Below are positions 16,728-26,942 of a DNA stretch of 64,000 nucleotides, piece after piece. The notes under the pieces were generated by a model. It worked only from the letters and a program-made list of their open reading frames with translations, did not search any database and was not told the DNA's origin. Source of the stretch: Candidatus Hydrogenedentota bacterium (lineage in GTDB: Bacteria; Hydrogenedentota; Hydrogenedentia; Hydrogenedentales; SLHB01); NCBI GenBank assembly GCA_045863335.1, contig BTVY01000004.1, forward strand, positions 139,354 to 203,353, written 5' to 3'. The position numbers and the translations under genes were made by a program. Position 1 is the first letter of the stretch, and each line of letters begins with the position of its first letter.

Positions 16728-16780
16728 CGCCGCCCGTGCAGTGCGGCAGCGTTTAAAAACAAGTGTGGGGGAATTGGAAC

Positions 16781-18838
16781 ATGCGAGCCAAGGTAGCACT
16801 TTATATTCTCCTGGTATTGAGCCTGTCGCTGGCGCACGGGGGTGAAATACGTGACGGTGTCTTGATCGTGGACAACAGGCCGTTCTACCCACTCGGCAGT
16901 TGGAATTTCACCACCACGACGCTGGAGGACATCGCGCTTCTCGGCATGAATACGAGCTTTCGGGGCGGTCCGGGAACCGAGGAAGCGGTCGAAGAGTTCC
17001 GAGGATTCATGCGCGAGTGCGATCGGCGGGGTATCCAGGTTGTGCCCTACCTTTCATACGGCGGCGCGGGCGTAACGCCTTGGGCGCCGGAAGCCGTGCG
17101 CGCCATCGCCAAACTGGCTTCAGAGCCCAATCTCCTCACGTGGTATGTGGGCGACGACATCACCATGCGCCATCTCGAAGGCATCCAACAAACCGTATCC
17201 ATTCTGCGTGAAGAGACTCCGACGGTTCCCACGGTGGCCGACTATATCGCCGATGAAACGCCCGAAGCGCAAACAACGTTCACGCAGTACGTTGACATCC
17301 GTTGCCAGTACACGTATCCGATTCCCGACGATCCCTACACAGAGTATCTCGCGTTCTTCGACAAACAGCGCGCCTTCGTCGGCGACCCTTTGTGGACCTG
17401 GGTGCAGAACTTCATGTGGGGCCACACGGGCCAGTTTCTTAGCGTGGGCGCGGAAGGCCCCGGGCCCATTCCCGATCCGGAGCAGGTGCGGTTGCTGGCT
17501 TTCGCCGCCATCAACCGGGGCGTGCGCGGACTGCTGTTCTTCGCTCACCACGAACTGCACCGCCTGCCGGAGCTGGCGGCCGAAGTGGCGTTGACCTGCC
17601 GCGAGATCCGGTTGTTCGAAGGCCACTTGGCGGCCGGGGAACCCACGTTCAATCTTCCCTGTTCCGACCCCGGCCTGAACGCCACAGCCTTCGCGTATGG
17701 CGGTTCGACGGTCATCTCGGCCGCGTTGTTCCGAGACCATTACCACCAGTACCTCGACGAAGGGATTATCGAGGACGTCACCATCACCTGTCCCTGGAGC
17801 GCCGAAACATTGCCCCGTGCAACGCTTGTCAACGTGCCCGATGTAGTCGCATGCGAGGTAAACCCAGGCGCGGAACCAGGAACGATTTCGATCCGCGTTC
17901 CGCGTCTGGAACTGGCGGGATTCATTCTCGTCGATCCGAAGGAAGAATCGATTGTGAGATTGGAGCAGCGACTCGAGTACATTCCCGAAGAGATGAAGAG
18001 CCTCATCGTGCCCGCAGCCGCGGCCCAGACGCGCAAGGTCTGCGGTGTGGTCTGGCAACTGGGACTCGACAACCTTTACGAATCGGAAACGGCGGTCATG
18101 GAAACGATGCGCACGCAGGAGCGTTGCGCGAGTGAAGTCGTGGATGGGGAGTACCTCGACGCCTTTCGCGCGTGGCGCAGTACGCTGCGGCACTGCCGGG
18201 GTCTGCTGGCCATGACGATGGCGTTTGCCGAGGAGCGGCGCGAGGCCATTCCCGCGAGCGTGCAGGATTACCTGGTCTCGCCCTATGGACTGCACAAGAT
18301 CCCCGGCCTGGGAGACGCGCCAGGCAATGATGAGCCGTGGCGGTTTACTCGCGAATGGCTCGTGACCGGCCCCTTCCCGCTGGAAGCAAACCTCGACGAC
18401 GAGCACGCCATGGCACCCGGATTTGAACGGGCTTATGCGCCGGAATCCGGCGACCTCAAGGCCACCTTCGACACGCTGGACGGTCCCCGATCCTGGCACG
18501 CCGCGGAGTGCGACGTGTCCGGGCTTCTCGATCTACGGCCCCTGTTCGATACGATCGACAACGTCGTCGCCTACGCCGCGTGCACGCTCAACGCCCCGCA
18601 AGACGGCGAAGCGAAACTGAGCATCGGCAGCAACGACGGCGCGCGCCTGTGGGTCAACGGCGATCTTGTCTACTCCGAACACGGCCCCCGTTCCGGCACG
18701 AAACACGATGCCGAAGTCACCGTTCCCGTGCGCCAGGGCGCCAACCCGATTCTCGTCAAAGTCGAGAACCTCGGCCGGAACTGGAAACTCTACCTCTCCG
18801 TTCACGACCCGGAACGGGCGTATACGTTCTCGCGGTAA
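16781..18838 (+). CDS. Secreted glycoside-hydrolase-like TIM-barrel protein with a C-terminal PA14-like domain
   Basis: Signal peptide; VDNRPFYPLG, PNLLTWYVGDD, GVRGLLFF; C-terminal WLVTGPF, GSNDGARLWVNG, GANPILVKV. Confidence 0.65.
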   Translation: MRAKVALYILLVLSLSLAHGGEIRDGVLIVDNRPFYPLGSWNFTTTTLEDIALLGMNTSFRGGPGTEEAVEEFRGFMRECDRRGIQVVPYLSYGGAGVTPWAPEAVRAIAKLASEPNLLTWYVGDDITMRHLEGIQQTVSILREETPTVPTVADYIADETPEAQTTFTQYVDIRCQYTYPIPDDPYTEYLAFFDKQRAFVGDPLWTWVQNFMWGHTGQFLSVGAEGPGPIPDPEQVRLLAFAAINRGVRGLLFFAHHELHRLPELAAEVALTCREIRLFEGHLAAGEPTFNLPCSDPGLNATAFAYGGSTVISAALFRDHYHQYLDEGIIEDVTITCPWSAETLPRATLVNVPDVVACEVNPGAEPGTISIRVPRLELAGFILVDPKEESIVRLEQRLEYIPEEMKSLIVPAAAAQTRKVCGVVWQLGLDNLYESETAVMETMRTQERCASEVVDGEYLDAFRAWRSTLRHCRGLLAMTMAFAEERREAIPASVQDYLVSPYGLHKIPGLGDAPGNDEPWRFTREWLVTGPFPLEANLDDEHAMAPGFERAYAPESGDLKATFDTLDGPRSWHAAECDVSGLLDLRPLFDTIDNVVAYAACTLNAPQDGEAKLSIGSNDGARLWVNGDLVYSEHGPRSGTKHDAEVTVPVRQGANPILVKVENLGRNWKLYLSVHDPERAYTFSR

Positions 18839-18843
18839 GCACG

Positions 18844-21735
18844 CTAGTTCGTTTCCAGTGCAATTTCCAGCGGAGTGGGTTCGCCGGGGACAACGAAAAC
18901 TTCTTGTTCGAACGTTGCGGCATCCGTTTGGTTTGGGAGGATAGCCCGCACCTGGACGACTGCCGCTCCGGAAGGAACGGAGGCGAATTCAAAATCACCA
19001 TTAACGCCGGTCTGCGCGCTGACACTTCGCATACCCAGGTCTCCCACGAGCGTGACGGTTGCTTCGGGAAGGGGATCTCCGATCAATGTAACGGTACCCA
19101 CCAGCGAACCGAATTCGAGAAGTACGATCTCCACGGGATGACCCGGTTCCTGCGATGAGGCGGCAACGACTCGATTTGCTCCGTAGTCGGGATGCGAGGC
19201 GAACAGATAAACATTCCCTGCAGAAAGGCCGTCCAGTACGAAGCGTCCGTCTGAACCGGTCTGCACCTCCGTCGTGGTCAAGTCCTTCTCGCCGGTCGCG
19301 GAGACGACCGCATGGGATACCGCCTGCCCTACGCTATCGCGAACCACCCCTTCCAGGCGATAGGCGTCCCGGCTGAGCACGACGACAATTCCGTCAACGG
19401 ACTGGCCGGGCTGAATTCGTCCAACAGCGGTGGCCTGTTGCGCGAACCCCGTTGCGCGGGCGACAAGAATCCTGGAGCCCGAGTCCGCCTCAATCTGGAA
19501 ACGGCCGAGGGAATCGTTCACCGAAAGGAACGTTGCGCCGGTCAGATTCACCCCGTCCTCCGGGCGTCGCCCTGGCACGACCGCGATCTGGAACTGTGTT
19601 ACGGGACGGCCGTCGCGTTCTTCGATTACGGTGCCGGAGATCGTCGGACGCGACTGCAGTACGACATCCACTCCCCGGCTTCCGGTCACAACGTCGTTGA
19701 CTGCCGCGCTTGCGAATTGCTCGTGAACGAAATCCAGCCGGTAGGTCTCTCCTGTCAGGCCGGACATCACGTAGGTTCCGTCCTCGCCCGTATAGGCGAC
19801 ATGGACGAGCGTATCATCGAGATTCTTACTGGCTGCGGTCACTTGGGTGCGGGCGATGGCTTCGCCCTCTTGGTCTGTAACCCTTCCGGAGATCTCCGTG
19901 AGCGGATCGGTCTCGTAAACCAAGCGGATTCCTGTCGCGTGTTGGCCCGGCGCGACCTGCACTGTCCCGGCGTGGCAAATGCCCTGGACGAGATGGAGAT
20001 CTTGTGCGCCGAGGATCAGATCGTAGCTGCCGGCGGCGAGTCCCGCGATCGTGAAGTGGCCATCCGGACCAGTCTCGCTGGAAAGTCGCCCCAGGGATTT
20101 CGCCATCGATGCATCCGCCAACTCCGCAAACACGACGCACTCGGCTGGCATGCCGGTGTTGTCCGTGACGATTCCTGCGATACTCGCGCCGGTTTCGATC
20201 GACAGCACGATTTCGATCCCGGACAGCCCTTCCGCAGGAACGGGGAACGGGCCAATCTCCGGCGCGAGGGTCTCGGAGGTCTTGGCGGATAGGTAGACTT
20301 CATCCCCCGTGGAAACGCCCGCAATGGTGAACGCGCCCGATCGGTTTGTGGTGCTCCCTCGCGGGCCGCCGAGGTTGGGCACACGCGCAAAAACCTGCGC
20401 CCCGGCAACTCCCGCGCCAGCGCCGTCGACAACCGTTCCGCTCACGGTAATGCTGCGCTTGAGCGGAAAGTCGACGACGGCCAAGTCCGCGTCCGGCGCG
20501 AGAACAACGTTCTGATACGTGATTCCCGATGTGTATTGGACCGGCAGTTCCGTCACGGCCAATCGAACCGCGCCGTAGTGGACGTTGGCAATCTGATAGC
20601 CGCCCGATTTGTCCGTCGCTGCAGATTCACGTTTCCTCCCCGGCCGATCGGAAGGAAAGGCGAGGACGATTGCTCCCGCAATGGCTTGCGACGAGTCTGC
20701 GTCGAAGACACGTCCTTCGACCGAGACACCGGAGCTCACGAGGACTTCGATTTCCGAATGCGCCGGATCGGCGGCCGATAACTGGAACTCAACCGGCTTC
20801 TCGAGTACGAGGACGTCGTCATCCAGGTAGGCGCTGTAGGAACCCGGCGCTAGACCGGTAAAGTCGAAGCCGCCCGCATCGCCGGTTCGTGCAAACCAAT
20901 CATTGAAAATGCCGTCTTTGTGGCGTACCCCAACCACCACGCCCGGTACTGGGGACCGGTCGGAGGCATGGACCACGGTTCCGGACACGCTTCCACCAAA
21001 AGCCAGCTGCACCACGGCGCTGTCGGTCCCCGTCTCGATCGGGTCCGTCACGACTGGCGCAAACCCGGCCGCGCTGATACGGAAGCGCCAGAACCGTCCG
21101 TCCAGGAGATCGAATGCGAACCGTCCCTCGGCGCTGCTGTGGACCGCCAATGCGGCGCCCCGAGCGCCCAACTCGTCCCCATCGCGTGCGTAAGGAACGA
21201 CTTCCGCGCCCGGTACCGGTTTCCCCTCCGGATCATCAATACGGCCGGCGAGTGGCTTCCCAGACTGGAGGATAATGCGAACCTGGGCAACCGGTTCGGT
21301 CGGCGTCAACCGCACGGTGAAGGAGCCAATTGCCGCCGTCGAGCGGGCGACGAGATCGCACATTCCAGCCGGAAGATCGGCAATTTCAAACTGGCCCAGT
21401 TCATCGGTTTGCGTGGCAACATGATCGACCAGGACATTCCCGTCCCGCACTCTGGCCAGGACGGAAACGCTTGCCGCAGGTCCAGTAGCCGACAAGACAA
21501 GTCCGGTAACCGAGCAGCCCGAATTCGAGCTATCGAGTACGGGCTGCACCTCCGGGGCGGGATCACGGGGAGCGTAGGGCTCGGGTACGGTAGTCACGCG
21601 GAGATCAGGCCGTGAAAGATTCTCCACGCTCTCACCGCCCGGACGGTCCGGGGCGCCGCTCCTGAACAGAATCGTGGCTACCACGGCCGCCAGCAAGGCC
21701 CCGAGTAGCCCCAGCAGCAAAAGTCGAACTTTCAT
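18844..21735 (-). CDS. Membrane-anchored protein of tandem carboxypeptidase-regulatory-like (prealbumin-fold) repeats
   Basis: N-terminal TM and Pro-rich linker; about 8-9 repeats of G.V.D..G.PV.GA.V...T...G.F...GL..G.Y. Confidence 0.85.
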   Translation of the reverse strand: MKVRLLLLGLLGALLAAVVATILFRSGAPDRPGGESVENLSRPDLRVTTVPEPYAPRDPAPEVQPVLDSSNSGCSVTGLVLSATGPAASVSVLARVRDGNVLVDHVATQTDELGQFEIADLPAGMCDLVARSTAAIGSFTVRLTPTEPVAQVRIILQSGKPLAGRIDDPEGKPVPGAEVVPYARDGDELGARGAALAVHSSAEGRFAFDLLDGRFWRFRISAAGFAPVVTDPIETGTDSAVVQLAFGGSVSGTVVHASDRSPVPGVVVGVRHKDGIFNDWFARTGDAGGFDFTGLAPGSYSAYLDDDVLVLEKPVEFQLSAADPAHSEIEVLVSSGVSVEGRVFDADSSQAIAGAIVLAFPSDRPGRKRESAATDKSGGYQIANVHYGAVRLAVTELPVQYTSGITYQNVVLAPDADLAVVDFPLKRSITVSGTVVDGAGAGVAGAQVFARVPNLGGPRGSTTNRSGAFTIAGVSTGDEVYLSAKTSETLAPEIGPFPVPAEGLSGIEIVLSIETGASIAGIVTDNTGMPAECVVFAELADASMAKSLGRLSSETGPDGHFTIAGLAAGSYDLILGAQDLHLVQGICHAGTVQVAPGQHATGIRLVYETDPLTEISGRVTDQEGEAIARTQVTAASKNLDDTLVHVAYTGEDGTYVMSGLTGETYRLDFVHEQFASAAVNDVVTGSRGVDVVLQSRPTISGTVIEERDGRPVTQFQIAVVPGRRPEDGVNLTGATFLSVNDSLGRFQIEADSGSRILVARATGFAQQATAVGRIQPGQSVDGIVVVLSRDAYRLEGVVRDSVGQAVSHAVVSATGEKDLTTTEVQTGSDGRFVLDGLSAGNVYLFASHPDYGANRVVAASSQEPGHPVEIVLLEFGSLVGTVTLIGDPLPEATVTLVGDLGMRSVSAQTGVNGDFEFASVPSGAAVVQVRAILPNQTDAATFEQEVFVVPGEPTPLEIALETN

Positions 21736-21787
21736 TCAACGCCACCCGTTCGATGTTGTTGAGGCCGACTTGCGTTCGATACTTTGC

Positions 21788-21817
21788 AGTTTAGCAGGGA
21801 AGTCTATGGGGTGGCAA
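21788..21817 (-). promoter_or_regulatory. Putative sigma70 promoter for the CarboxypepD-repeat gene
   Basis: Minus strand TTGCCA-N18-TAAACT with extended TGn. Confidence 0.4.
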
Positions 21818-21862
21818 TAGGGACGGCTCCGTCCCGGAGAAGGTAAATATTTGGAAAACTCA

Positions 21863-21891
21863 TTGACGAACTAATCCAGTTATGCAATACT
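21863..21891 (+). promoter_or_regulatory. Putative sigma70 promoter for the Cys-rich cassette
   Basis: TTGACG-N17-AATACT with TG at the extended -10 position. Confidence 0.55.
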
Positions 21892-21942
21892 GATGTGCGG
21901 AGAAGTAAACTGTATGGTTCGAGCAACGAAGGGGGTTCGCTT

Positions 21943-22386
21943 ATGGACGCGCAGCGATGTTTAGCGATTCTCATTGTTGGAGTTGGGGCATACTGCCTGT
22001 TGGTGCCTCAAGTTACCGATGCCGCCTGTTTGATATCGGAGCAGTCAGCATGCGCTACGGCTTGGACCTGCGAGGAAGAGTGTGAATACGGGAATCGATG
22101 TTACTCGACGCGGGTGATTGGATTTGTGTTTCCCGGATATACGAAATGCCGGTCCGTGCAGGGATCGGAAACAGGTCATCAAGACCCGTGCATCAACAGT
22201 GCTGAACCGGGGAATTGCTACCAATGGTATAACTGTGAAAAATACTTGAAATGTACTAATCCTTTGGCAGACTGCGGGGATGAATGTGAGATAAGCACTT
22301 ACTACCAATGCGGGTATGGAGGCCTAGGCAGCGTACACATTAGGTACTCGGAAATCGAAGACTACTCCAAGCCAGCGTGCCCATGA
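21943..22386 (+). CDS. Small secreted cysteine-rich protein (14 Cys after the predicted signal cleavage)
   Basis: Signal-like MDAQRCLAILIVGVGAYCLLVPQVTDA; promoter upstream; ATGA coupling to the next gene. Confidence 0.75.
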   Translation: MDAQRCLAILIVGVGAYCLLVPQVTDAACLISEQSACATAWTCEEECEYGNRCYSTRVIGFVFPGYTKCRSVQGSETGHQDPCINSAEPGNCYQWYNCEKYLKCTNPLADCGDECEISTYYQCGYGGLGSVHIRYSEIEDYSKPACP

Positions 22387-23420
22387 CGGTCGTTCGAGAA
22401 CTTGGATGGGGGCGGAGGTATTGGCGTTCGGCGTTGGTTGTGTGCGTTCTGGCCGTCACGATTTGTCTTGCCGGTAACGCAGATCCGATCGATCCCCTTA
22501 TCGCAAATCTTGTTGCGGAACAGGAAAAATCCTTGTCGCAACTGCGGCGTTTCGAGGTTACCCTCGAGTTATATATTTGGTTCGAAAGCGGCGATCTAAC
22601 CGTAGAGCACGTTGGGGAGATCAATCAGAAGCACGCGCCGGATCGCATGCGCGTCGACGTTATCCGGCAGACGACCGAAAGAGATAGGAACGGAAACACG
22701 AAAAGCGCCATGGATACTTCGGCCCGTTTCGTGGTCGGTGACGGGTACGCGCTTTACTGGATGCGCAACTCAAAAATCGCTCAAATATGGGAGTACAGGG
22801 AGGTGTCGGAACTGCCTCACCCGGCCCGGTTGATCCGCCGTATCGACATGGAAGGCGACTACATCCACTGTTTCGGGTTTGGAACCATGGATTTTGAGTT
22901 CAAGCAGTTGCTCGACCCGGATTTCACAGAGAGCTTTCGCTATGAGGTTGAGCAGGTTTCGGGCGGCAAATATGACATCAAGCTGTATCTGCGAGACGGC
23001 GTCGGACCCGAGGTCAGTCATCCAGTCCAGACAGCAATTGTTGATCCGGCCCAGGGGTGTCTGGTGGTGCATAGCTTGATGCTGGATCCGGATGGCCGGC
23101 CATACCGGCAAATCGATGTCCAGGGTGAGGAAATCGCGCCCGGGGTTTGGTTTCCTATTCGAGCCCGTCTGCAAATGTTCTCCGATGACGATGGCGACCA
23201 GGGAGGTGGCGCTCGCTTGGTCACGCTACGGGAGTACAAGGTGCGGTCCGTAGGAATTGTCGATAGCTTTGAACCAGACACCTTTACCTGGAAGAGTCTG
23301 GCGTTTCCCGCTGGAATGACGCTGTATCGTACGGACGTTCTAGGCGAGCAGCGCGCCTTAGTCGTCGAGAACGGAGAACTTGTACCCAAGGATCTCACGC
23401 GTGAAAGACGTGAACGGTAG
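22383..23420 (+). CDS. Secreted hypothetical protein, LolA/lipoprotein-sorting-like beta fold
   Basis: Signal peptide ending GNA; pattern IVDPAQGCLV...EIAPGVWFP...PDTF...FPAG. Confidence 0.65.
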   Translation: MTVVRELGWGRRYWRSALVVCVLAVTICLAGNADPIDPLIANLVAEQEKSLSQLRRFEVTLELYIWFESGDLTVEHVGEINQKHAPDRMRVDVIRQTTERDRNGNTKSAMDTSARFVVGDGYALYWMRNSKIAQIWEYREVSELPHPARLIRRIDMEGDYIHCFGFGTMDFEFKQLLDPDFTESFRYEVEQVSGGKYDIKLYLRDGVGPEVSHPVQTAIVDPAQGCLVVHSLMLDPDGRPYRQIDVQGEEIAPGVWFPIRARLQMFSDDDGDQGGGARLVTLREYKVRSVGIVDSFEPDTFTWKSLAFPAGMTLYRTDVLGEQRALVVENGELVPKDLTRERRER

Positions 23421-24495
23421 CCGCTTGCGTGACGGCATTGCGCGACGATTCTACCGTGGCCTTTGCGCAAGAACGTCGTCTAGGCGGGTTCTGTGGCGAT
23501 CGGCAGTAGCTGTTCTGGTTCTCGCCGTGGTGGGTTGTACGTCTGCTGATAGGCCGAATCCGGAAGACTTGGTTTTCGACTTCGGGTTTGCCCGGCAAGG
23601 TGACGCCGTGTCGCACGTGTTTCACGTGGCAAATCCCACGAGTATCCCCCGGTTGATTACCCGAGTTGCCACCACCTGCAACTGCACGGTGGCGAATCTG
23701 CGGGAGGGATCGTCGATACCGCCGACTGGCGTGTTGGATGTTCCTGTCGAAGTGGATCTGTCCGGGAAGACCGGAATTGTAAGTAGCAGTGTCACGCTGT
23801 TCTTTGAAGGCGAAGAAGAGCCGACTCGTCTCTTGATAAAGGGTCAAGTGCCTTACGAGTACCCTGCCGTGGTTGACTTCGGACGCGTTTTAAGAGGTTC
23901 AAAGAACTGTACACAGTCCCTGCGGATGGCAACCTATCCTGGGCAGCCGCCTATCGACATCGTAAAGGTTCGGCGTAAGGACCCGGGACTTGCGTACGCC
24001 TACCACCGAGTGTCAGGCGATCCAGACGTGCTCATTCTGGAGCTTACCGTAACGGACAAGATGGATTATGGCCGTTTTGATTTCCCTGTAGTGTGGGTTA
24101 CGAACGATTCTGGGGCACCAGACAAGCAAATGCAGATAACGGGTTTTGTTGTACCGCCAGTCGAGGTCTTGCCTAAAGAAATCAACTTTGGTTTTGTCCG
24201 TACTGACAACGACTTGAGCCCTCATGAAATCGTGGTTTCATCTACGTATGGTACAGAGATAGCCGATCTCAAGATTGAAGCGACTCGAGACGATTGTTTC
24301 GATTGGTCGATATCCAGTGCTGATTCCCACTCGGCCAAGATTCAGGTCAAGTTAAGGGAAGAATTACCTTCAGAGTTGCCCGCAGGTATTGTAAAAGGCG
24401 ACTTGCGAGTTCATTGCGAATTGGAGGGTCAAGAACACGAAGCGCGAGTTGAGTTGTATGCCGTGATTCCGGAAACCACGAACGAACTCAAATGA
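23410..24495 (+). CDS. DUF1573 (Ig-like, CxC) domain lipoprotein
   Basis: Lipobox VVGC; FDFG...HVFHVANP...RVATTCNCT; two further Ig-like repeats (VDFG, INFG). Confidence 0.8.
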   Translation: MNGSRLRDGIARRFYRGLCARTSSRRVLWRSAVAVLVLAVVGCTSADRPNPEDLVFDFGFARQGDAVSHVFHVANPTSIPRLITRVATTCNCTVANLREGSSIPPTGVLDVPVEVDLSGKTGIVSSSVTLFFEGEEEPTRLLIKGQVPYEYPAVVDFGRVLRGSKNCTQSLRMATYPGQPPIDIVKVRRKDPGLAYAYHRVSGDPDVLILELTVTDKMDYGRFDFPVVWVTNDSGAPDKQMQITGFVVPPVEVLPKEINFGFVRTDNDLSPHEIVVSSTYGTEIADLKIEATRDDCFDWSISSADSHSAKIQVKLREELPSELPAGIVKGDLRVHCELEGQEHEARVELYAVIPETTNELK

Positions 24496-24621
24496 AACCG
24501 CCCTTGAATCCCGTGTGAGGTCCACGATTAGTGATTTCATTCACAACCGCCAAATGCCTCTGTTCAAGACACCCCTTGATCCAGGTTCTTCCTCGTGCGC
24601 CCGATTAGCGCGCTCATGCCC

Positions 24622-26142
24622 TTACGTGCGGCCGGAGATGTGGGATTTTACCGTACGCCGATCGAGTCCCAACTGTTTTGCGGCGGCACTGTAGGATCCG
24701 GTCTTCTCATATACGCGACGACAGTAGATCCCGAGTAGTTCTTCGGCAGTCAGACGACAAGCAAGAAGTTCATCGAGCACAATATCCCTGTTCGCGTCGA
24801 TGAACGGTGTCGGGACATAGGACTTGCGCACCATGATGTTTCGCACGCACTGCTCCAGTTCGCGCACGTTGCCCGGCCAGGGATAGTCTGCGGGCAGGTG
24901 ATCCCAAATCCATACGTCGGTTTCTTCGGCAAGGGCCTTTGCTTCGGGCTCGCCGGCGACCCGCTGCGCGACGTGTCGGATCAGGTTGCGCAATTGTTCC
25001 CGTGATTCCGCGATCTGCTCCCGGAGCGAGGGTGTCCGGATGGTATCGGAGCAGAGCCGGTAATACAGGTCTTCGCGAAAGCGGCCGCTGCGGACGGCCT
25101 CGGTGAGGTCGCGGTTGGTCGCGGCAACGATCTTGCCTCGGAAGGGGCGGCTCTTGGTTTCGCCGACGCGCCGGAAGGTGCGGTCCTGAACGACGCGGAG
25201 CAGCTTGACCTGGATGAAGGGATCGAGTTCGCCCAGTTCATCGAGAAAGACGGTCCCGTGGTCGTGGCAGATCTCAAAGTACCCGGCGCGGTCGGCCATG
25301 GCCCCGGTGAAGGCGCCTTTCACGTGGCCGAATAGTTCTGATTCGATAAGCGTGGGGGACAGTTCAGACAGGTTCACGGGGTGGTAGGCCCGAATGAAGT
25401 CTTCCGCGGGACGTTTGCGCCGCGCGTCAAAGGGGATGTATCCGGAGTACGCGATAGCTTTTGCGACCAGTTCCTTGCCCGTACCGGAGGGTCCCGTGAT
25501 CAACGTGGTCACGTCGTTCATGCGCGAGTAGAGCGTGCGCCGGTACCGCGCCATGTCGCAGGTGAAAATCGATTGCCACGTTGCGGCGCGGAGTTGGGCC
25601 GATGCCGTGGACCCGCCGATGATGTTGTCGAAGATGTGGTGAAAGGCCCGGCGCAACTGAAAGAAACAGGCGAACAGATGTTCCCGTTCTGCCAAACCTG
25701 GAAAGGTGTAACCCCGGATATTCAGGTAGTGGGCCATGTCCGCGCAGAACGCGTCGTAGCATTCGATCGGCGCGGGTTCGTTCGCGTTGGCGACTAAGGC
25801 GGATTCGATGTACTCGCGGAGTTTGGATTCGTAGCGGTTGTATAGGAGATACAGTACCACGCTCTCGTACAGGGCGATCTCGCGGGCGCCCGCGGACTCG
25901 CCCCGTTGGAGACTCTCCCGCGCCCGGTTGGCGATCTCTTCAGCCACGTTCGTAATGCGCGCGATGTTCGGACGAACTGCCGCCTCGCCCGCTTCCCGAT
26001 GCCAGGCCGTGCCGCTGGAGACGAAGGCGCCGCCCAGCACCTCCCGCTCCAACTCGATTCGTTCCTGCGAAAAGGGGTTGCAATGGTTCAAACGGGCCAA
26101 GGCTTCCACGCGGCGGATCGAACCCTGGTCGAAGAGCACCAT
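24622..26142 (-). CDS. Sigma54-dependent enhancer-binding protein with an uncharacterised N-terminal domain
   Basis: GPSGTGKE, ESELFGHVKGAFTGA, FLDELGE, WPGNVREL, C-terminal HTH; GGAGGT RBS before MVLFDQ. Confidence 0.92.
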   Translation of the reverse strand: MVLFDQGSIRRVEALARLNHCNPFSQERIELEREVLGGAFVSSGTAWHREAGEAAVRPNIARITNVAEEIANRARESLQRGESAGAREIALYESVVLYLLYNRYESKLREYIESALVANANEPAPIECYDAFCADMAHYLNIRGYTFPGLAEREHLFACFFQLRRAFHHIFDNIIGGSTASAQLRAATWQSIFTCDMARYRRTLYSRMNDVTTLITGPSGTGKELVAKAIAYSGYIPFDARRKRPAEDFIRAYHPVNLSELSPTLIESELFGHVKGAFTGAMADRAGYFEICHDHGTVFLDELGELDPFIQVKLLRVVQDRTFRRVGETKSRPFRGKIVAATNRDLTEAVRSGRFREDLYYRLCSDTIRTPSLREQIAESREQLRNLIRHVAQRVAGEPEAKALAEETDVWIWDHLPADYPWPGNVRELEQCVRNIMVRKSYVPTPFIDANRDIVLDELLACRLTAEELLGIYCRRVYEKTGSYSAAAKQLGLDRRTVKSHISGRT

Positions 26143-26268
26143 GGTCAGCACCTCCAGATACATAAAATGTACAGGAAGTGCTCGAACTTTGTCCAGGCGC
26201 AGATGTAGCCACCGACCTCGGATGTAGTTAAATCGTTATATTGCAATCGTCAAGGTCAAGTCACCGGA

Positions 26269-26284
26269 TGGCACGGGCAATGCT
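26269..26284 (+). promoter_or_regulatory. Sigma54 -24/-12 promoter
   Basis: TGGCACGGGCAATGCT (GG-N10-GC), divergent from the activator gene. Confidence 0.7.
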
Positions 26285-26336
26285 CTTGGTAAATCGTTGC
26301 TGAAACGAATCAACGCGTGATTTGGGGATGGACATC

Positions 26337-26942
26337 ATGAAGATGGCTTTTCAACCAAAGCCTTGCGGTAAAACCCGGGGGCGCACGGGAAGCATTGCGC
26401 TTCTGGGCACGATTCTATTTGCCGGATCGGTGTTGCCGGGATGTTTTGGCTGCGAACCGGTAACCAGTGGCGGGGCGGCCAAAGAAACGATTGGCATCTA
26501 CGACTCCCGCGCCATAGCGGTGGCGTACGCCGGATCGGAATTGCACGAGGCGCAGCTCGGCAAATTAAAGGGCGACTACGACGCCGCCAAAGCCGCAGGC
26601 GACGAGGCGCGTGTCGCGGCGCTCGAGAAGGAAGGGCGGGACGGACAGCGTCAGATGCATTTGCAGGGATTCGGAACGGCGCCGGTCGATGATATTCTTC
26701 AGCACATTCAGGGAGATTTGGATCAGATCAGAGCCGACGCCGGGGTCGTGGCCCTCGTGTCAAAATGGGACGAGGCCGGACTCGCCGCGCACCCGGATGC
26801 GGCCCGCGTGGACGTGACGGAGGCACTCATCGACGCCCTTCATCCCAGCGAACGGCAGCGGAAAAGCGCAATCGACATCCAGCGGCATAAGCCAGTTCCC
26901 ATGGACGAATTGGAGAAGCACATCGAGAACGGTGACATCTGA
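26337..26942 (+). CDS. Putative lipoprotein, distantly Skp/OmpH-like
   Basis: Lipobox LPGC; IGIYDSRAIAVAY, helical middle, VDVTEALI; start uncertain. Confidence 0.65.
   Translation: MKMAFQPKPCGKTRGRTGSIALLGTILFAGSVLPGCFGCEPVTSGGAAKETIGIYDSRAIAVAYAGSELHEAQLGKLKGDYDAAKAAGDEARVAALEKEGRDGQRQMHLQGFGTAPVDDILQHIQGDLDQIRADAGVVALVSKWDEAGLAAHPDAARVDVTEALIDALHPSERQRKSAIDIQRHKPVPMDELEKHIENGDI

Follow-up and report, generated by a model that had tools for sequence, protein, structure and literature searches.

A conserved four-gene cell-envelope cassette of Candidatus Hydrogenedentota that links a LolA-fold protein and a CarboxypepD_reg repeat protein with a cysteine-rich exported protein and a DUF1573 protein

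What is the function of a locus in which a small, exported, cysteine-rich protein is encoded together with a LolA-like protein and a DUF1573 lipoprotein, back to back with a long repeat protein, and does this set of genes also occur elsewhere? The question is raised by a stretch of 64,000 nucleotides of a Candidatus Hydrogenedentota genome (assembly GCA_045863335.1, contig BTVY01000004.1, positions 139,354 to 203,353), which is referred to here as the window and whose own numbering is used throughout. The source genome has a size of 6.75 Mb and is 99.4% complete, and the window lies on one of its contigs; the public sequencing runs that contain the stretch are labelled as sludge, wastewater and bioreactor metagenomes. 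The region in question is one copy of a conserved Candidatus Hydrogenedentota cell-envelope cassette, consisting of four real genes, named A, B, C and D in the following list of features.

18844-21735, minus strand: gene A, 963 amino acids (aa), from the open reading frame (ORF) list, Pfam PF13620
21863-21891, plus strand: sigma70-like promoter candidate, TTGACG-17 nt-AATACT with TG, 9 of 12 positions matching, 5' of B
21943-22386, plus strand: gene B, 147 aa, with signal peptide (21943-22023) and mature part of 120 aa (22024-22383)
22383-23420, plus strand: gene C, 345 aa, exported; frame open from 22377, ATG at 22383
23410-24495, plus strand: gene D, 361 aa; GTG at 23410, frame open from 23380, alternative starts at 23380 and 23401
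23536-23538, plus strand: lipobox cysteine of D, Cys43 in LAVVGC (VVGC), from the translation
23677-23685, plus strand: CxC motif of D, Cys90-Asn-Cys92 in TTCNCT (TCNCT), from the translation

The genes B, C and D are coupled, as described in the original prediction for this stretch. The start codon of C is found inside the stop codon of B (ATGA at 22383-22386), and the stop codon of C (23418-23420) falls within D for every candidate start of D, giving the overlap at 23410-23420 when the GTG start is considered. B has a frame that is open from 21895 onwards and probably starts with the ATG at 21943, with the sequence AAGGGGG 8 nt before it, and A and B are divergently transcribed. The original prediction also described a small secreted protein with 14 mature cysteines and two CxxxCE units, a LolA-like second protein, a CxC-containing DUF1573 Ig-like lipoprotein and a 963-aa anchored repeat protein transcribed back to back with them, and these descriptions agree with the properties of B, C, D and A, respectively, as given below.

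The recurrence of the cassette is seen when considering the loci of C. The C profile was obtained from an alignment of homologues (A2), and all ORFs were labelled with hidden Markov models (HMMs) made here for each of the four genes. The C family is present in 30 of the 133 genomes of the order (E ≤ 1e-5) and in 29 of the 135 genomes of the phylum (E ≤ 1e-10), often with several copies per genome. Fifty-four stretches were taken around C-profile matches, and 51 of these carry C; an A-like gene is found in 32 of the 51 C loci, a D-like gene in 20, a B-like gene in 19, both B and D in 17 and all four genes in 14, these being counts as seen rather than independent events, with near-duplicate sister-genome pairs (window/L026 and L020/L021) and many cut contigs among them. 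The first B HMM missed most members, which were found as the single long ORF in the gap of about 500 bp between C and D, each having a signal peptide and 10 to 15 cysteines. Such a short cysteine-rich ORF with a signal peptide is what the original prediction had proposed to look for in homologous loci, and it is present in 17 of the 20 loci that have D. In the three loci with D and without B, the contig is cut inside C, D is a fragment of 188 aa, or the match is weak (5e-5). B without D is seen in two loci, L073 and L077, and in the latter the contig starts 342 bases away from the B-like ORF. In a sample of five metagenome loci anchored on D, which come from the same two lineages as before, B is directly 5' of D in four, and the fifth contig begins inside D.

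The usual gene order is C-B-D-A on one strand, with B after C in 16 of the 19 loci, before C in two (the window and L017) and after A in one. Of the layout proposed originally, the joint recurrence of A, B, C and D is therefore retained, but the position of B before C is the exception. In the source genome there are three sets: the one of the window, one on contig C12 (C-B-D-A, one strand) and one on contig C30 (C-B-D), the C of which has diverged so far that the HMM does not detect it, although its WFP and NGEL motifs identify it; up to six C matches are found in other genomes. There are two layers of linkage, a core layer of C with A and an accessory layer of B with D. A, which had been regarded as a mere divergent neighbour, is in fact the most constant partner of C, and natural fusions of C-like domains with CarboxypepD_reg repeats exist.

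The flank scan covered the first 90 of 156 listed flanking proteins, and all statements on flanking genes refer to these. The flanking genes vary by locus, including sulfatases, glycoside hydrolases, Hsp90 and sugar transferases, and no shared regulator, transporter or secretion gene is found among them next to the cassettes. As the flanks differ from locus to locus, the cassette is self-contained. The median local identities of 66 pairs from 12 complete cassettes are very similar for the four genes (29.6% for A, 29.7% for B, 26.4% for C and 28.2% for D), and the genes thus diverge jointly, as matched sets. The possibility that B evolves faster than its partners was rejected, with medians of 26-30% for all four, and the variability that had been claimed for the cysteine-rich protein is not observed, as B diverges like A, C and D.

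In the core layer, A is a member of the CarboxypepD_reg repeat family (PF13620; 5.8e-78, 257.7 bits), which is matched in 10 stretches. Its N-terminus has a hydrophobic stretch of 20 residues, taken as the anchor, and a proline-rich linker (both assigned by eye), followed by about 10 transthyretin-like domains. The cytoplasmic end is only four residues long, and neither M56 (PF05569) nor any other signalling domain is matched. PF13620 is also matched by all eight scanned A-like neighbours at other loci (7.6e-57 to 6.5e-85). Eight A orthologues can be aligned collinearly over their full length with even conservation, and hence the A rod is a conserved unit and not a shuffled repeat array. Matches of A to CooC_C and usher models are both below threshold.

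For C, no Pfam or NCBIfam family is found at E ≤ 0.1, including LolA (PF03548), LolA_like (PF17131) and MucB_RseB (PF03888), but at the level of the fold the AlphaFold2 model, calculated from 11 sequences, places the protein in the LolA superfamily (predicted local distance difference test score (pLDDT) of 85.3, predicted template modelling score (pTM) of 0.79). In the Foldseek search with this model, the top matches are nearly all from this superfamily (DUF1329, LolA3, LolA, LolB and RseB), with probability 1.0 and E-values of 9.5e-9 to 1e-4. The structural alignments (VIA-align), covering model residues 38-319, give Z-scores of 14.2 for the DUF1329 structure 4z48 (root mean square deviation of 4.7, 208 aligned residues), 13.2 for 3bk5, 13.1 for LolA3, 12.9 for the LolB of P. 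gingivalis, 10-11 for LolA of several species and 9.2-9.4 for RseB. The predicted structure of C is therefore that of an open β-barrel, as in the exported members of the LolA/LolB/RseB/DUF1329 superfamily (4z48, 9tp6, 9tpm, 3bk5, 1iwl and 2p4b). When compared with these proteins of 180-240 aa, C (345 aa) is far longer, having a conserved C-terminal extension that ends with NGELVP. It also differs from the Lol and Rse systems in its surroundings, being adjacent neither to lolCDE nor to rseA, and having as its partners the CarboxypepD_reg rod, the cysteine-rich protein and the DUF1573 protein. The LolA3 literature, as far as listed, concerns lipoprotein sorting in Bacteroidota.

The C family is large. 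Among 1.84 billion representatives, the number of representative clusters matched by its profile is 839 at E ≤ 1e-3 and falls to 328 at 1e-10 and to 91 at 1e-30. The structural look-alikes in the ESM Atlas are unnamed clusters, mostly from Planctomycetota and Verrucomicrobiota, and in one neighbouring cluster of 263 members an AhpC-TSA domain is present in 48%. A Pfam scan of 57 relatives of C found most of them without any family; two distant relatives match LolA_like at 16.5 and 17 bits, below the cut-off of 30. Several relatives are fusions. In P0083 the C-like part is followed by an AhpC-TSA/Redoxin domain (3.7e-12), which is also seen, as a weak match, in P0056. CarboxypepD_reg repeats follow the C-like domain in P0081, and in P0104 a Peptidase_M56 (BlaR1) domain is followed by FGE-sulfatase, then by the C-like domain and then by CarboxypepD_reg repeats. 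P0101 is an extracytoplasmic function (ECF) sigma factor fused to a C-like domain, and P0053 has both LolA_like and C-like parts. A metagenome scan with the thioredoxin-type fusion P0083 found no relative.

Three further observations concern C-type genes at other loci. In L024 (G021:C8, 4914-9280, minus strand), a weak member of the C family (E 1e-12) is located immediately 3' of the genes for an M56 protein of the BlaR1 type (992 aa) and for a repressor of the BlaI type, an arrangement that resembles the fusion P0104. In three loci of genus g4 (L057, L058 and L059), C-type genes without A, B and D adjoin a DUF4914 gene and genes of PASTA-repeat proteins that contain dockerin domains, which suggests that the C family has further partners in this genus. 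In L073 (G111:C85, 5955-8577, plus strand), a C-type gene is followed by a B-type gene and a truncated second C-type copy with a near-identical N-terminal half, with neither D nor A in reach, and this looks like a decaying or recently duplicated cassette.

In the accessory layer, B is a small exported protein, the signal peptide of which ends with TDA|AC, as judged by eye. The mature part has 14 cysteines, the first being mature residue 2 and the last being one residue before the C-terminus, and it holds two CxxxCE units, CATAWTCEEECE and CTNPLADCGDECE. No Pfam, NCBIfam or PADLOC model is matched. The 16 aligned B members (100-125 aa, acidic and aromatic-rich) have 14-23% identity to the protein of the window, with seven cysteine columns and the Cx3C units being preserved. 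The number of mature cysteines is even (10, 12 or 14) in 15 of the 16 members, the sixteenth, from L073, having a misaligned signal peptide. Across the members, the first conserved cysteine is 1-3 residues past the predicted cleavage site (by eye) and the last cysteine is 0-3 residues from the end. Such an even count, together with the fixed positions of the terminal cysteines, is the pattern of structural disulfides. When B of the window is compared with that of a variant strain in sequencing run X6, the 23 listed codon differences comprise 19 synonymous and 4 non-synonymous changes, and no cysteine is altered; with this ratio and with all cysteines being kept, B is shown to be a genuine gene that is under purifying selection.

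The B profile gives no match to solved structures at E ≤ 10, and B has no usable match in the ESM Atlas; in a word search of 5.8 billion proteins, the single query finds one protein with 96% identity and the profile finds two proteins. At one locus (L075, G021:C33, 12103-12575, minus strand), a B-type gene is present in two frames, with the signal peptide and the first cysteine block in one frame and the remainder in the other, being either a frameshifted pseudogene or an assembly error; the A-type gene of this locus is split as well, and three C-type genes are present.

D belongs to the DUF1573 family (PF07610; 6.5e-14, 52.2 bits with a cut-off of 26.1), with the Ig-like domain (residues 55-147) preceding a further part of about 210 residues. 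It also has a HYDIN/VesB-like Ig match (3.9e-6) and a match to the NCBIfam OS_HP2 (seleno)protein model (5.4e-10), which is under the cut-off of the model. Both cysteines of the CxC motif (C90 and C92) are invariant among the D-type proteins (15 of 15), where the motif is mostly TSCGCT. As judged by eye, D-type proteins have a lipobox or, in many cases, lack it and have a plain hydrophobic anchor at the N-terminus. With its family CxC and its score above the Pfam threshold, D resembles DUF1573 proteins in general; its subgroup differs from the others by its length of about 340-380 aa, by the membrane anchor and by being tied to a B-type gene.

DUF1573 (PF07610) is tabulated as a prokaryotic selenoprotein family with the motif UGC in a table of one review (PMC9312934), and it is entered with the same motif in the selenoprotein table of a second review (PMC13188914). 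A selenocysteine in the place of the first cysteine points to redox chemistry at the CxC site. The CxC of D is probably redox-active, as this role fits both the invariance of the motif in the D-type proteins and the listing as a selenoprotein with UGC.

The common enzymes of disulfide formation are rarely found in this lineage. No match to DsbB, VKOR, DSBA or Thioredoxin_4 is found in the 99.4%-complete source genome, and control genomes do respond to these models. In the phylum, DsbB is found in 1 of 94 genomes of at least 90% completeness and in none of the 86 of high quality, and VKOR is found in 1 of the 20 genomes of the family with at least 95% completeness. In the source genome, three matches are of the MauE type (contigs C51, C10 and C81) and two are of the DsbD type, and none of the five is adjacent to a cassette. 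It has eight DUF1573 genes, and the five that are outside the cassettes have no B-type neighbour.

It is possible, although somewhat short of an even chance, that D oxidises or isomerises B and that C and A form a core scaffold that receives the folded B as its specific element. The core layer would consist of the exported LolA-fold protein C and the membrane-anchored rod of A with about 10 transthyretin-like domains, where C is probably located at the membrane-proximal end, or base, of A, as a C-like domain immediately precedes the CarboxypepD_reg repeats in the natural fusions. In the accessory layer, B would be locked by 5-7 disulfides, with terminal cysteines at both of its ends, and D would be the membrane-anchored Ig-like protein that provides the CxC. 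After Sec export, the CxC of D is proposed to act at the membrane on its cognate B, forming or reshuffling the 5-7 disulfides, and the folded B could then be held by, or passed to, the scaffold of C and A, on which it would be a cassette-specific cap, ligand or adhesive element. This oxidative-folding reading is based on the linkage of C with A and of B with D, the overlaps of the genes, the LolA fold of C, the invariant CxC, the paired cysteine count and purifying selection of B, the fusions of C relatives to a thioredoxin fold or to A-type repeats and the absence of matches to the Dsb enzymes. The mechanism of the original prediction, in which the roles of C as a carrier and of D as a thiol chaperone were likewise inferred, is plausible; we infer every contact, every chemical step and the final cellular role of the cassette.

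Several observations weigh against the oxidative folding of B by D on a scaffold of C and A. The loci with C and without D number 31 of the 51, and most loci have neither B nor D, so that carrying B cannot be the sole job of C and its principal role is not linked to B. All eight DUF1573 genes of the genome have the CxC and only three of them are in cassette sets; the motif of D could bind metal instead, and the three MauE-type and two DsbD-type genes could supply the disulfide chemistry without D. The equal divergence of B argues against a hypervariable ligand, and the AlphaFold2 model of B, calculated from 16 sequences, is unreliable (pLDDT of 49.6, pTM of 0.25). Conserved secretion or export machinery beside the cassette is not found among the scanned flanking proteins, and surface display is a guess. 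The contigs of one RNA library that span B, C and D with 95-99% likeness may stem from DNA carry-over.

Alternatively, the cassette could assemble a fibre or adhesin, with A as the stalk, B as the tip or a subunit, D as an Ig chaperone of the PapD kind and C moving or docking the parts, such that paralogous cassettes would have different surface specificities, comparable with multiple fimbrial operons. This is unlikely, even if it is in agreement with genomes having several paralogous sets that diverge together (three in this one, with as many as six C matches elsewhere), with the Ig-like domains of D and their weak HYDIN/VesB-like and PapD-like matches, with A being a rod of about 10 β-sandwich domains and with the cysteine-pinned termini of B, which would resist proteases. 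The PapD-like match of D is far below threshold (E 0.024, 15.3 bits with a cut-off of 27), no usher, sortase, pilin motif or secretion gene is found in the scanned flanks, and A has an N-terminal membrane anchor, with no outer-membrane or wall sorting signal seen by eye; the invariant CxC is also left unexplained. Slightly less likely is extracytoplasmic sensing, in which C and A would be a ligand-binding ectodomain and B a secreted signal or decoy matured by D. It is suggested by the fusions of C-like domains to a BlaR1-type protease (P0104) and to an ECF sigma factor (P0101), by the weak C homologue adjoining the BlaR1/BlaI pair in L024 and by the structural match of C (Z of 9.4) to RseB, which is a LolA-fold sensor. 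These long fusions are rare, as 5 of 150 listed relatives are longer than 600 aa and only two of them have a BlaR1-type protease or sigma-factor domain. The A of the window, with its short cytoplasmic end, lacks M56 and any other signalling domain, a conserved regulator next to the cassettes is not found in the scanned flanks, and the sigma-54 activator gene near D is convergent to it, the only good sigma-54 site being 5' of another gene.

CxC motifs and clustered cysteines are common metal ligands, and together with the conserved Cx3C units of B they favour a role in metal handling, in which the CxC of D and the cysteines of B would be envelope ligands for copper or some other thiophilic metal, the scaffold being formed by C and A. 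This appears improbable when considering the even cysteine count of B in 15 of 16 members and its fixed terminal cysteines, being the pattern of structural disulfides, and B is acidic and aromatic-rich, without the histidine and methionine ligands that are typical for periplasmic copper proteins (partly by eye); a copper pump, CsoR, CopZ and a cupredoxin are not found in the scanned flanks. It is equally improbable that C is a private Lol-type carrier, not for B but for a lipid-modified or hydrophobic partner, such as the lipoprotein D, the anchor of A or a lipid. The strong structural matches of C are all acyl-chain or lipid carriers or receptors (LolA, LolB, LolA3, LprG and DUF1329), the D of the window has a lipobox, and C and A are the constant pair. 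Many D-type proteins are without a lipobox (by eye), the loci with C and without D are the majority, and no LolCDE-type ABC genes are found beside the cassette in the window or among the scanned flanking proteins; the fusions of C to A-type repeats also point to a stable complex rather than to shuttling.

The comparison of the proposed oxidative folding of B by D with known systems shows several likenesses. MauE/MauD with the cysteine-rich MauA, and bacteriocin operons with a private thioredoxin-like helper, are client-specific oxidative-folding sets. In the cassette, a cysteine-rich exported client is likewise encoded beside its own putative thiol-active helper, in a lineage that depends on chemistry other than that of DsbA and DsbB. 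Here, in contrast, the helper would be the Ig-like DUF1573 protein with its CxC, which has neither the thioredoxin fold nor the properties of the membrane protein MauE, and a dehydrogenase, an ABC exporter and an immunity gene are not found among the scanned flanking proteins. The cassette is not of the Mau type, as the MauE matches of the genome (contigs C51, C10 and C81) are away from all three cassettes. Redox domains outside the thioredoxin fold are also known, namely the N-terminal Ig-fold domain of DsbD and the CxC centres of Mia40 (CPC) and Erv2 (CGC). Like the N-terminal domain of DsbD, D has an Ig-like periplasmic domain with a cysteine pair, and like Mia40 and Erv2 it has a CxC pair, which could be able to pass disulfides to Cx3C clients, such as B with its conserved Cx3C units. 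D differs from these proteins in having no sequence relation to them and no attached DsbD membrane domain, and in the literature as matched the hint at a putative redox activity of DUF1573 is its listing as a selenoprotein family with UGC.

The cassette is also not a known chaperone-usher or BlaR1/BlaI system. The PapD-like match of D and the CooC_C and usher matches of A are below threshold and no usher is found in the scanned flanks; A is without PF05569, and M56 is seen only in the distant fusion P0104 and beside the weak C homologue of L024. The models of PADLOC, at E ≤ 0.01, match A, B, C and D with 0 families, and the cassette is not assigned to a defence system. In the full-text literature matched for DUF1573, the family appears only in selenoprotein tables, with the further matches being on other subjects according to their titles and abstract openings. 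The matches for a carboxypeptidase regulatory-like domain paired with LolA are unrelated by title and abstract opening, and no such cassette appears in the titles and abstract openings of the listed matches on Hydrogenedentota or Hydrogenedentes. Within the limits of this literature search, the cassette is apparently undescribed.

The families of B and C are without a Pfam or NCBIfam model, and C alone accounts for the 839 representative clusters mentioned above. The cassette links both families to DUF1573, a widespread domain for which the selenocysteine variant of the CxC is the only published clue in the literature as matched. If D is a client-specific disulfide catalyst, DUF1573 would gain a function, the LolA fold would gain a protein-holding role, and it would help to explain how proteins with 5-7 disulfides occur in a phylum with DsbB in 1 of 94 genomes. 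A wider generalisation is rather unlikely, namely that the DUF1573 Ig-like CxC defines a new class of envelope disulfide catalyst with private, co-evolving clients where DsbA, DsbB and VKOR are largely not found, and that LolA-fold proteins hold folded mini-proteins, not lipids, on a long anchored rod. If this were true, the cassette would be one example of a broader, undescribed association between LolA-like proteins and cysteine-rich exported partners. Even with a wrong mechanism, the co-occurrence rules, C with A and B with D, provide an annotation handle for hundreds of hypothetical genes.

The base composition of the cassette differs from that of the genome, as had been noted originally for the locally AT-rich DNA. 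The B-C-D stretch has a G+C content of 0.532, compared with a genome mean of 0.600 (standard deviation of 0.020 in windows of 2.8 kb), which is in the lowest 1.2% of 4669 such windows. Low G+C and low G+C at third codon positions (GC3) are common to all three cassette sets of the genome, the GC3 being 0.49-0.62 versus 0.75-0.81 for neighbouring housekeeping genes. The interpretation as a foreign island or recent transfer is disfavoured, because low G+C and GC3 are shared by three paralogous sets and no mobile-element genes are seen. The sigma70-like promoter that had been proposed 5' of B is present as a site at 21863-21891, but such sites are not above chance in the region (3 versus 2.0 ± 1.1 in shuffled sequences). 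A sigma-54 promoter 5' of B is not found at two or fewer mismatches, and the Rfam search of the window finds no RNA element family.

When 21500-24700 is divided into 30 bins, 24 are covered by contigs from a single RNA-seq library (X6), these contigs showing neither transcription nor strand and the uncovered bins being uninformative. The metatranscriptome X24, from the same sample as the DNA run X2, covers only one bin of this region. The variant strain in run X6 differs from the window by about 5% in B and the first part of C (27/546 and 23/466 letters; 21737-22732) and by less than 1% at the end of D (3/450; 23931-24380), and this uneven divergence along one operon is possibly due to recombination.

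On the other side of A, the gene at 16763-18838 (plus strand) encodes an exported protein of 691 aa, for which the only match is a weak PA14-like one at the C-terminus (E 2e-4). It is tail to tail with A, with the stop codons 6 bases apart, and is not found beside the cassette at other loci. Convergent to D is a sigma-54 activator gene at 24622-26163 (minus strand). In the window, a single sigma-54-type site has no more than one mismatch, namely the sequence TGGCACGGGCAATGCT at 26269-26284 (plus strand), and it is just 5' of a divergent ORF of 206 aa at 26322-26942 (plus strand), which has the lipobox-like sequence LPGCFGC. The pair of activator and ORF is also preserved in the sister genome (L026), and it is probably a separate regulator-target pair.

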